From Escherichia coli (GTDB taxonomy: Bacteria; Pseudomonadota; Gammaproteobacteria; Enterobacterales; Enterobacteriaceae): a DNA stretch of 64,000 nt. Numbering within the stretch: position 1 is the stretch's first letter; every line of letters begins with the position of its first letter. The notes below the pieces were generated by a model. It was not told the DNA's origin and did no database searches. It saw only the letters and a program-made list of their open reading frames with translations. Position numbers and translations under genes: made by a program. Below are positions 20,539 through 22,022 of the stretch, piece by piece. The DNA is taken from assembly GCF_011045215.1 (NCBI RefSeq), contig NZ_CP049201.1; one strand, written 5' to 3'.

Positions 20539-21483
20539 ATGAAAAATTGGATGCTGATATTGTTATTTTGTCCTTGGTATGTTTTTTCTCAGGGCTATAT
20601 AGAGTCTATTGTTGTAGACGGTGCCAGAACAGATGCAAAGGTTGAAGGTGACGGAGTATATAATATTTCTTATGCCCATGGTGCTGGTGGTTATCATTTC
20701 CAGATATTCCACAGTGATTGTACGGGGTCTCTGGCAATGTCATATAGTTATATATCACTTCCACAGAATGTCACTATTAATAACAATAGTTATAATATTA
20801 ATTGGCATGCATCTTTTGGTGAGGTTGTGACTGTTGGTCAGCGGGTTATTGTTTTTTCTCTCAAACCTGATCAACATTTGAGAATTTGTGCATTTGTTGG
20901 TGGGGAGGGGCGCGATACTCCTGCGGGACCGATTAGCGTCAGTGGAATAATTAACTTTAAGGAGCTTCTGACACCCGGTGTGATTCGTTTACCTCCGGTA
21001 ACTTATTTTGTAGGTAATGTCTTTGCTAATACGAAATCAGAAGCGTTAGATCTTTTGATAAATTATTCTGACAAAGGAAATCCAACGGTTTTATATCCAA
21101 ATGGTGATGGTGAATTAATAATTCCAGAACAGTGTAGAATTTTTGATGGTTCCGATAAGATAAGTATACCTATGGAGGATGTACCATTAGGTACAAAAAA
21201 ATCGAAAAGAGTTTTACACACTGTAGAGTGCAATTCAGAGAGTGCGGCATTAAAATTTATAAATTTCCGGTTGTATGGGCAGGGAGGGCAGGAAATACAG
21301 GCATCTCCAGGAAGGCAGGAATTAAAAATTAAAATGAGCAATGGGTCCAGTGCGAATATCAGAATAATGCCATTGCCAAATGGAAAGATAGTGGAGTTAC
21401 CAATAGATGTTACTCTGGATACTACAAAAGGAAAATCTGGTGATACAGAAGGAAGTGCTATTTTGCAATATACACTAAATTGA
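20539..21483 (+). CDS. Fimbrial tip adhesin-like protein 3 (putative two-domain)
   Basis: 314 aa, signal peptide, Cys pair (EQCRIF...VECNSE), C-terminal ...SAILQYTLN. Confidence 0.55.
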   Translation: MKNWMLILLFCPWYVFSQGYIESIVVDGARTDAKVEGDGVYNISYAHGAGGYHFQIFHSDCTGSLAMSYSYISLPQNVTINNNSYNINWHASFGEVVTVGQRVIVFSLKPDQHLRICAFVGGEGRDTPAGPISVSGIINFKELLTPGVIRLPPVTYFVGNVFANTKSEALDLLINYSDKGNPTVLYPNGDGELIIPEQCRIFDGSDKISIPMEDVPLGTKKSKRVLHTVECNSESAALKFINFRLYGQGGQEIQASPGRQELKIKMSNGSSANIRIMPLPNGKIVELPIDVTLDTTKGKSGDTEGSAILQYTLN

Positions 21484-21770
21484 TTCTCAGGAGGCTCTGT
21501 ATGCGATTAATACCACCCGTGACAAGAACAGTGTATAATATTAATAACCTACATTTGTTTGCAGATGGTTGTAAGATTATAAAAAACAGCCTGAAGGAAC
21601 AAAGGGAACAATGTGGTCAGATAGCGTTTTCAATAAATGAAATAGCACGAATAACGGATATGAATATCCGCCATGTCTGTGTATGCTTAAGTATTCTGGT
21701 TTGCGCTGAGGTGATGAGCTGTATTACCAATGAATGTGGGGAAAGAAAGTGGTTTCTTGTAACGAAATAA
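21480..21770 (+). CDS. Small winged-helix protein, weakly PapI/FaeA-like
   Basis: 96 aa; C-terminal ...CGERKWFLV resembles the PapI family W(F/Y)L end; paralogous to the ORF at 26306. Confidence 0.4.
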   Translation: MILRRLCMRLIPPVTRTVYNINNLHLFADGCKIIKNSLKEQREQCGQIAFSINEIARITDMNIRHVCVCLSILVCAEVMSCITNECGERKWFLVTK

Positions 21771-21806
21771 AACTATAAGAGAAGGGGACTACACAGAGGG
21801 GGGATT

Positions 21807-22022
21807 ATGCATTTAAAATATGATGGTTGTGAAGTAATCATTAAATTTATGGCGGAACGTGATACAACATTATTACCATTAACTACACGACAGATTGCGG
21901 ATGGTTGTGCCATGTCTGTTTATGCTGCGCGTTATTATTTACAGAAACTCAGCAAGCTGCATGTTGTTGGGTCTGACAGAGTCGGTAAAGGTAGTGCTGT
22001 TCGGTGGTATTTGCAGATATAA
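21807..22022 (+). CDS. PapI/FaeA-family small regulator
   Basis: 71 aa; ...TTRQIADGCAMSVYAARYYLQKLSKLHVVGS...AVRWYL aligns with PapI (...[31 protein letters not shown]...ATYWFL). Confidence 0.6.
   Translation: MHLKYDGCEVIIKFMAERDTTLLPLTTRQIADGCAMSVYAARYYLQKLSKLHVVGSDRVGKGSAVRWYLQI

Follow-up and report, generated by a model that had tools for sequence, protein, structure and literature searches.

In the pap operon of Escherichia coli the small regulator PapI acts together with Lrp at ACGATC boxes, biasing their methylation by Dam (Hernday et al. 2003, as cited in PMC12388093), and in the pef operon of Salmonella Typhimurium plasmid pSLT a relative of PapI, PefI, is encoded on the 3' side of the operon (pefB-pefA-pefC-pefD-orf5-orf6-pefI-orf7(srgD)-srgA and onwards), with GATC boxes 102 bp apart. 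Here we describe three small open reading frames (ORFs), ORF1 (21501..21770), ORF2 (21807..22022) and ORF3 (26306..26557), all on the plus strand of a 64,000-nucleotide stretch of E. coli DNA (contig NZ_CP049201.1; the whole stretch is called the window below), which the original prediction had taken for PapI-like genes lying 3' of a fimbrial operon, their unusual position suggesting regulatory cross-talk. We think it probable that this is a pi-type operon with pef-type regulation, in which ORF2 is the cognate regulator, ORF1 is its partner or an output regulator and ORF3 belongs to a separate module. The window holds one standard, annotated family member (ORF2) and two very divergent copies, and thus extends a known arrangement; when all 64 kb were searched with tblastn and, in six frames, with a hidden Markov model (HMM), exactly these three PapI-like genes came up and no fourth.

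ORF2 and the fimbrial switch

ORF2, which closes the fimbrial operon on its 3' side, encodes a canonical FaeA/PapI-family regulator of 71 amino acids. Its match to the Pfam FaeA family (PF04703), with E 3.7e-10 and 40.4 bits where the gathering threshold is 20.7, bears out its earlier assignment. It is already annotated in RefSeq (WP_061322826.1, 'FaeA/PapI family transcriptional regulator'), and it carries both the recognition-helix motif S-V-Y-x-x-R-Y-Y-L and the C-terminal W-[YF]-L. The closest solved structures by sequence are PefI (2JT1, E 3.4e-5) and PapI (2HTJ, E 1.7e-3), and among known regulators it lies closest to PefI, being 36% identical to the pSLT protein (E 1e-10). NCBIfam gave a meaningful match for none of the three ORFs.

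At the other end of the operon lies a predicted Pap-type Dam/Lrp switch, consisting of a distal ACGATCTTTT site (11143..11152, plus strand, GATC at 11145-11148) and an inverted proximal ACGATCTTTT site (11243..11252, minus strand, GATC at 11247-11250). The two inverted ACGATC-context GATCs, at 11145 and 11247, are exactly 102 bp apart and stand 5' of a PapB-family regulator gene (11292..11603, plus strand; Pfam PapB E 5.4e-28; PapB/FocB family in RefSeq; exact start codon uncertain), which heads the operon. The structural genes that follow (11714..21483, plus strand) encode two subunits, an usher, a chaperone, a PapJ-like protein, two minor subunits and three adhesin-like ORFs; the operon is a pi-type (Pap/Pix/MR-P-like) chaperone-usher operon. 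No divergent papI was found 5' of the switch, whether as an ORF, an HMM match or a tblastn remnant (10600-11340, E<=100), and the layout is in this respect that of pef.

The fimbrial structural genes are immediately followed by a PapI-family gene not only in pSLT pef (as pefI) but also in the E. coli loci L002-L006 and L017-L019 (as FaeA genes), so that the synteny comparison supported the earlier observation of such genes downstream. The pef-like operon of L002-L005 has a PapB gene and a 102-bp GATC pair, with an ORF1-type gene and then a FaeA gene at its 3' end, and L006, whose operon is that of the window except for another adhesin cassette, again has an ORF1-type gene with a FaeA gene. The Pix-like operons of L017 and L018 combine a 102-bp GATC pair with the 3' order adhesin-FaeA-DsbA; L019 shares this 3' order and has no 102-bp GATC pair upstream. 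The pef-type layout, with PapB and a GATC switch at the 5' end and a PapI-type gene at the 3' end, is therefore widespread among E. coli pi-fimbrial operons, and ORF1-type genes constantly stand in tandem with a canonical FaeA gene; both observations are modestly new. Since this layout recurs in E. coli and there is no divergent papI, ORF2 is most simply read as the operon's own regulator and not as a stray extra copy; judged by its sequence and place, it is most likely the co-regulator of the Lrp/Dam switch. The position of the downstream genes is thus not anomalous, and the step from position to cross-talk, as originally drawn, is only partly supported, cross-talk by ORF1 and ORF3 being possible.

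An ISEc8 element (IS66-family, window 8242-10647) has an EAL-domain gene (6976-7878) on one side and the switch region on the other, and it ends about 500 bp 5' of the distal GATC. It might affect the upstream regulatory input of the switch. A displacement of papI by this element was considered and rejected, because L006 has the same upstream region and is also without papI.

The T-rich regulatory DNA 5' of PapB genes gives rise to spurious Phe/Leu-rich ORFs, as in L008 (3347-3586, a 79-amino acid call) and in the window (11000-11260), and these should not be confused with faeA-like upstream regulators.

The tip-subunit/adhesin region of the operon is a swapped cassette (window 17698-21479 against L006 8100-9980). 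In the window it holds the three adhesin-like ORFs (18579-19538, 19547-20506 and 20539-21483) of about 315 amino acids each, which gave no BLASTP match to each other at E<=1e-3 and of which only the first matched MrpH_C, weakly (E 0.003); in L006, whose operon is otherwise 95-98% identical, there is instead a single 335-amino acid MrpH_C adhesin. Homology between the two loci stops at 17698 and returns exactly at 21479, at the start of ORF1, which makes ORF1 and ORF2 part of a conserved 3' backbone next to an adhesin cassette that can be exchanged.

ORF1 and ORF3 as distant relatives of PapI and PefI

All three ORFs exist where the original prediction had put them, with the qualification that ORF1 more likely starts at ATG 21501 than at TTG 21480, which overlaps the stop codon of the adhesin gene. 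This ATG stands 17 bp past the end of the last adhesin-like ORF, with a Shine-Dalgarno AGGAGG (21489..21494, plus strand, read from the sequence) 6 nt upstream, and it agrees with the 86-89 amino acids at which ORF1 homologues are called. RefSeq lacks the gene altogether: its Prokaryotic Genome Annotation Pipeline (PGAP) left 21483-21807 empty (NZ_CP010123.1 136300-136620). That omission in NZ_CP010123.1, together with the lack of a Pfam family, is what could be said for ORF1 being a spurious ORF, left out for that very reason. Such a reading is extremely improbable and is effectively refuted already, as the homologues, 71-87% identical, show pairwise dN/dS ratios of 0.38, 0.22 and 0.18 with dS up to 1.3, which indicates purifying selection; there is also the ribosome-binding site, a length kept in three operon contexts, a confident winged-helix model, the existence of the paralogue ORF3, and the GenBank annotation of ORF1 as a hypothetical protein (APJ80026.1, RG28_27720), the exact protein being found on about 305 contigs. 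On these grounds we regard ORF1 as a real gene, purifying-selected and encoding an 89-amino acid protein. In every locus with enough sequence, covering the three operon contexts, an ORF1-type gene lies directly 5' of a canonical FaeA gene.

A weak Pfam/NCBIfam match of ORF1 to YmcE_antitoxin (E 0.009; 16.6 bits, cut-off 27) was below threshold and was rejected; YmcE is a small protein rich in cysteine and hydrophobic residues. The 90%-identity cluster P0003, whose representative is the 89-amino acid ORF1 protein, also holds 71-amino acid FaeA/PapI proteins of the ORF2 type. This mixture is probably a clustering artefact of read-through or fused gene calls, and because of it the ORF2 search did not return ORF2's own exact cluster.

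ORF3 encodes an 83-amino acid divergent PapI/PefI-like winged-helix protein with a ribosome-binding site (AGGAG, 26294-26298) 7 nt 5' of its ATG. As had been proposed, ORF1 and ORF3 are true paralogues (30% identity over 81 amino acids, BLASTP E 8e-13, both ending in WFLV). The further claim that all three genes are PapI-like holds directly for ORF2 and, for the other two, through profile-profile comparison, bridging sequences and fold, not through Pfam: neither ORF1, nor ORF3, nor four close homologues matched the FaeA family even at E<=10. Their likeness to PapI is accordingly one of remote homology and not of Pfam-level membership. Index-based word searches for homologues yielded only very close relatives. 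When the ORF1/ORF3 alignment was run as a full HMMER profile against 1.84 billion representatives, the only distant matches were P0010-P0013 (E 2e-5 to 1e-3). Three of these four, P0010, P0011 and P0012, exceed the Pfam FaeA threshold or lie right at it (22.8, 32.2 and 20.7 bits, cut-off 20.7). Members of the P0010 cluster are named FaeA/PapI by NCBI, and a bridging example, WP_135524156.1, is annotated as a 'FaeA/PapI family transcriptional regulator'.

Aligned with hhalign, the ORF1/ORF3 family matched FaeA/PapI/PefI with 93.3% probability (E 2.6e-7, 64 columns) and the bridging group P0010-P0012 with 98.4%, while the bridging group matched canonical FaeA/PapI/PefI with 98.3%. An HMM of the bridging trio (A3) recovered all four proteins in question from the six-frame set (ORF3 8e-17, ORF1 2e-7, PefI 6e-7, ORF2 3.5e-6). 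ORF1 and ORF3 are both of the single-domain winged-helix type (a1-b1-a2-a3-b2-b3, about 70-90 amino acids) in AlphaFold 2 models, in which ORF1 (helix 18-38, a beta strand, helices 45-52 and 56-68, hairpin 72-86) reaches a predicted local distance difference test score (pLDDT) of 81.7, about 90 in the core, and ORF3 one of 84.6. Foldseek with the ORF3 model placed PefI (2JT1) first of 350,542 PDB chains, with template modelling (TM) scores of 0.70/0.80; the Foldseek E-values are weak (about 2e-3), and for ORF1 the generic winged-helix families MarR, ArsR and Z-alpha do as well as PefI and PapI. A sequence search of the PDB with the ORF1/ORF3 profile gave only TFE, a winged helix ending in WFI, at a non-significant E of 0.34.

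The alternative that ORF1 and ORF3 are generic winged-helix factors of the ArsR, MarR or Z-alpha type, with no specific kinship to PapI or PefI and with a C-terminal WFL acquired by convergence, would fit the missing Pfam match and the weak direct BLASTP similarity of ORF1 and ORF3 to ORF2 (E 2e-3 and 3e-4, as single comparisons). We consider it very unlikely, given that the profile alignment extends across the full domain, that most of the distant matches reach the FaeA cut-off, that one bridging HMM finds ORF3, ORF1, PefI and ORF2 alike, that PefI is the top PDB fold match of ORF3, and that the genes keep to a consistent niche at the 3' ends of PapB-headed fimbrial operons. ORF1 and ORF3 are thus placed in the PapI/PefI superfamily by their profiles, by the bridging sequences and by their predicted fold, as a very divergent, Escherichia-restricted subfamily below Pfam detection, which is also modestly new.

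A merged alignment of 16 sequences, with only small gaps over the domain, shows the recognition helix changing in graded steps from canonical FaeA/PapI (SVYAARYYL) through the bridging proteins (SVRQCREHL and TVGLTREYL) to ORF3 (SVRQCCICL) and ORF1 (NIRHVCVCL). The core residues I30, A31, L45 and L48 and the W67-F-L wing are kept in ORF1 and ORF3, the hydrophobic core and the wing tryptophan being retained throughout the alignment. In the helix itself both proteins have Y39 replaced by R, and R-Y-Y (R in 5 of 7 canonical sequences) by C-[VI]-C; R42 is not universal even in accepted members, as the L018 and L020 copies show. Because canonical recognition-helix residues are replaced, binding of ORF1 or ORF3 to Lrp-ACGATC complexes cannot be assumed.

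Three cysteine positions are invariant across the ORF1 and ORF3 subfamilies: a single one lies in helix 1, and the recognition helix contributes a C-x-C pair. ORF1 as a whole has 7 cysteines among its 89 residues. A match of ORF3 to MC6 (ABC-3C) was found only at E 0.16 and was rejected.

Putative roles of the three proteins

By analogy with PapI, ORF2 would bind Lrp-DNA complexes at the two GATC boxes and so set which GATC Dam can methylate. If ORF2 is transcribed with the operon it would report the ON or OFF state back onto the switch; with ORF2 at the operon end, gaps of only 17 bp before ORF1 and 36 bp between the end of ORF1 and the start of ORF2, and no predicted terminator, its synthesis probably feeds the ON state back. 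As to the sign of such feedback, PapI activates while pefI has been described as a repressor (PMC12388093). No intrinsic terminator was predicted around ORF1 and ORF2, and promoter-like matches there were below shuffle expectation. Feedback from the 3' end of a fimbrial operon has been described for StdE/StdF, which act back on the Dam-dependent std switch (PMC6735912).

ORF1 most likely works alongside ORF2, whether by supplying a further input to the same switch, by modulating it, or by serving as an output regulator of the operon; precedents for an output role come from the PefI-SrgD pair and from MrpJ, PapX and StdE/StdF. Its constant pairing with a FaeA gene and its cysteine-rebuilt helix suggest, by analogy, that it is likely to be a partner or modulator of ORF2 or an output regulator of the operon. 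One could also picture ORF1 as an antagonist or decoy of ORF2, which would compete for Lrp or pair with ORF2, fail to recognise ACGATC and so tune or reset the switch. ORF1 does always adjoin a canonical FaeA gene, its recognition helix is replaced while its hydrophobic core and C-terminal W-F-L wing are intact, and it is under purifying selection; this scheme is purely inferential, however, and PapI-family proteins are not known to heterodimerise. We judge it unlikely. A further reading, also unlikely, is that the whole ORF1/ORF3 subfamily, having rebuilt its recognition helix on conserved cysteines (C-[VI]-C-L plus the helix-1 cysteine), no longer serves in Lrp/GATC co-regulation and forms a distinct, fimbria-linked class of output regulators or modulators. 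Its members might then be redox- or metal-sensitive partners or antagonists of the adjacent FaeA protein, or might couple the fimbrial ON state to motility or to surface-polysaccharide genes (shf-capU-virK). Were this so, the obligatory pairing of ORF1 with FaeA would amount to a PapI system of two components, for which no precedent has been described.

ORF3 lies outside the fimbrial operon, in a neighbouring module that is separately mobile. P0001, which is 99% identical to ORF3, always occurs within the series shf-like polysaccharide deacetylase, capU-like glycosyltransferase family 4 (GT4) protein, VirK/DUF535, outer membrane protein (OMP), ORF3, DUF4056, hypothetical protein and AraC, and this module is found both 3' of the fimbrial operon and without it, beside a YadA-type adhesin. 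P0002, 80% identical to ORF3, lies at the 3' end of a third type of chaperone-usher operon, with PapB genes; since both a GATC pair and a FaeA gene are missing from that operon, the ORF1/ORF3 subfamily probably does not strictly need the Dam switch. With its acidity (isoelectric point (pI) 4.79) and its relatives in operons without a GATC switch, ORF3 may act through protein-protein contact or on other targets.

The window at 22177-29568 and 30201-32074, and the loci L013, L015, L017, L018 and L020, hold the shf-virK-ORF3-AraC module region and IbrA/IbrB-like genes; the latter (a 3'-phosphoadenosine-5'-phosphosulfate (PAPS) reductase with IbrB) recur also 3' of Pix-like operons.

The wider alternative is that ORF1, ORF2 and ORF3 are extra cross-talk regulators, whose main targets would be not the switch of this operon but other loci, for instance fimbrial switches on the host chromosome, flhDC and motility, or the neighbouring shf-virK/AraC module. 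PefI together with SrgD represses flhDC and flagellar class I expression (PMC3224193), and the 3'-encoded regulators MrpJ, PapX and StdE/StdF act on other loci, which includes repression of motility (PMC3224193, PMC6735912). The membership of ORF3 in a module that is not fimbrial and can be found where the operon is absent, the altered recognition helices of ORF1 and ORF3, and the close homologue of ORF3 in an operon without a GATC switch point the same way. We nevertheless hold this to be rather unlikely, as the operon has a full GATC pair and a PapB-like gene with no PapI-type gene other than ORF2, which makes a role in cis the simplest, and as exact matches to ACGATCTTTT in the window are confined to the switch pair, leaving no second pair and so no other Pap-type target sites for cross-talk. 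The two accounts are in any case compatible and do not exclude each other.

Two E. coli loci, L003 and L019, are single contigs with two or more PapB-headed operons within about 13 kb. L003 holds a pef-like operon and a window-type operon (3054-10607 and 16122-20261), the latter with GATCs 103 bp apart, and in L019 a Pix-like operon lies beside an F4/K88-like fae operon. Cross-talk between PapI or PapB paralogues is plausible in strains of this kind.

Our preferred account, that of a pi-type operon with ORF2 as cognate regulator, ORF1 as partner or output regulator and ORF3 in its own module, has to be set against several observations that do not favour it. That ORF1 and ORF2 are transcribed together with the operon is deduced only from the two short gaps and the lack of a predicted terminator; the acidity of ORF3 is unusual in a DNA-binding winged helix; and the P0002 operon does without both the GATC pair and the FaeA gene. 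To these are added the failure of ORF1 and ORF3 to match Pfam FaeA, the weak Foldseek E-values with the equal scores of ORF1 against other winged-helix families, and the substitutions in the recognition helix, all given above.

Occurrence and comparison with known fimbrial systems

The window is 99.9% identical to NZ_CP010123.1 (plasmid A, 214 kb, conjugative, from the bovine E. coli strain C5). BLAST found the ORF1-ORF2 region in 1 of 5426 complete E. coli genomes and in 1 of 72,556 plasmids, and carriers of ORF1-ORF3-type genes are rare and mostly ruminant isolates; with so few genomes concerned (1/5426), the practical impact of the genes is modest. For annotation, ORF1 is a real gene missing from RefSeq, and two hypothetical proteins become assignable to the PapI/PefI superfamily. 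The combination of a 5' PapB gene and GATC switch with a 3' PapI-type gene is not special to Salmonella pef. PL fimbriae operons have been stated to "lack PapI" (bioRxiv 10.1101/2021.07.20.453171), and such statements may merit a check of the DNA 3' of the adhesin gene. The constant pairing of a divergent paralogue with a FaeA gene also raises the question of how epigenetic fimbrial switches receive feedback or relay their state.

Among known systems, pap shares with the window the switch itself (two inverted ACGATC sites 102 bp apart, with a PapB-like gene), and PapI (homologues SfaC, DaaF and FaeA) shares with ORF2 its Pfam family, the Y-x-x-R-Y-Y-L helix and the C-terminal W-[YF]-L. The papI gene is divergent and lies just 5' of the switch, whereas ORF2 lies about 10.5 kb 3' of it, at the operon end, and ORF1 and ORF3, unlike PapI, are without its recognition-helix motif. 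MrpJ (Proteus), PapX (uropathogenic E. coli) and StdE/StdF (Salmonella std) are encoded in the last positions of their operons after the adhesin gene, as in the window; they belong to other protein families (Xre-type helix-turn-helix, MarR-type and others), and what is shared is position and logic, not homology.

Beyond their own clusters, ORF1 and ORF3 have their nearest relatives in the bridging proteins P0010-P0012, which share with them a D-x-C motif in helix 1, a Y-G-E-[VI] loop and a W-F C-terminus and differ in keeping R-E-[YH]-L in the recognition helix where ORF1 and ORF3, below FaeA detection, have C-[VI]-C-L. Like ORF1 and ORF3, the bridging proteins are found in the niche 3' of a fimbrial operon, and they occupy the pefI position: P0010 lies between an MrpH-type adhesin gene and an AraC gene, P0011 in the order PapB-FaeA-DsbA-P0011-Ail/Lom-AraC-shf-capU-virK, and P0012 after its operon and before a GerE (SrgD-like) and an AraC gene.

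The closest parallel is with pef. PefI, like ORF2, is a small single-domain FaeA/PapI winged helix encoded 3' of a PapB(PefB)-headed operon, and among solved structures none comes nearer to ORF2 in sequence or to ORF3 in fold. In both systems a second small regulator gene adjoins the PapI-type gene; in pef this is srgD, encoding a LuxR/GerE-type protein, 3' of pefI, whereas in the window it is the divergent PapI-like paralogue ORF1, on the 5' side. SrgD was considered as a homologue of ORF1 or ORF3 and was rejected, there being no similarity. The pef operon has a third GATC site where the switch of the window has two, and the series srgD (LuxR/GerE)-srgA (DsbA)-srgB-rck (Ail/Lom)-srgC (AraC) does not follow ORF2, which lacks srgA, srgB and rck after it and has shf-capU-virK-like genes instead. 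The relatives do carry DsbA, GerE, Ail/Lom and AraC genes, and an OMP gene and an AraC gene stand farther along in the window. Taken together, the ORF3 module and the DsbA, Ail/Lom and AraC genes of its relatives look like a shuffled version of the pefI-srgC accessory operon of Salmonella.

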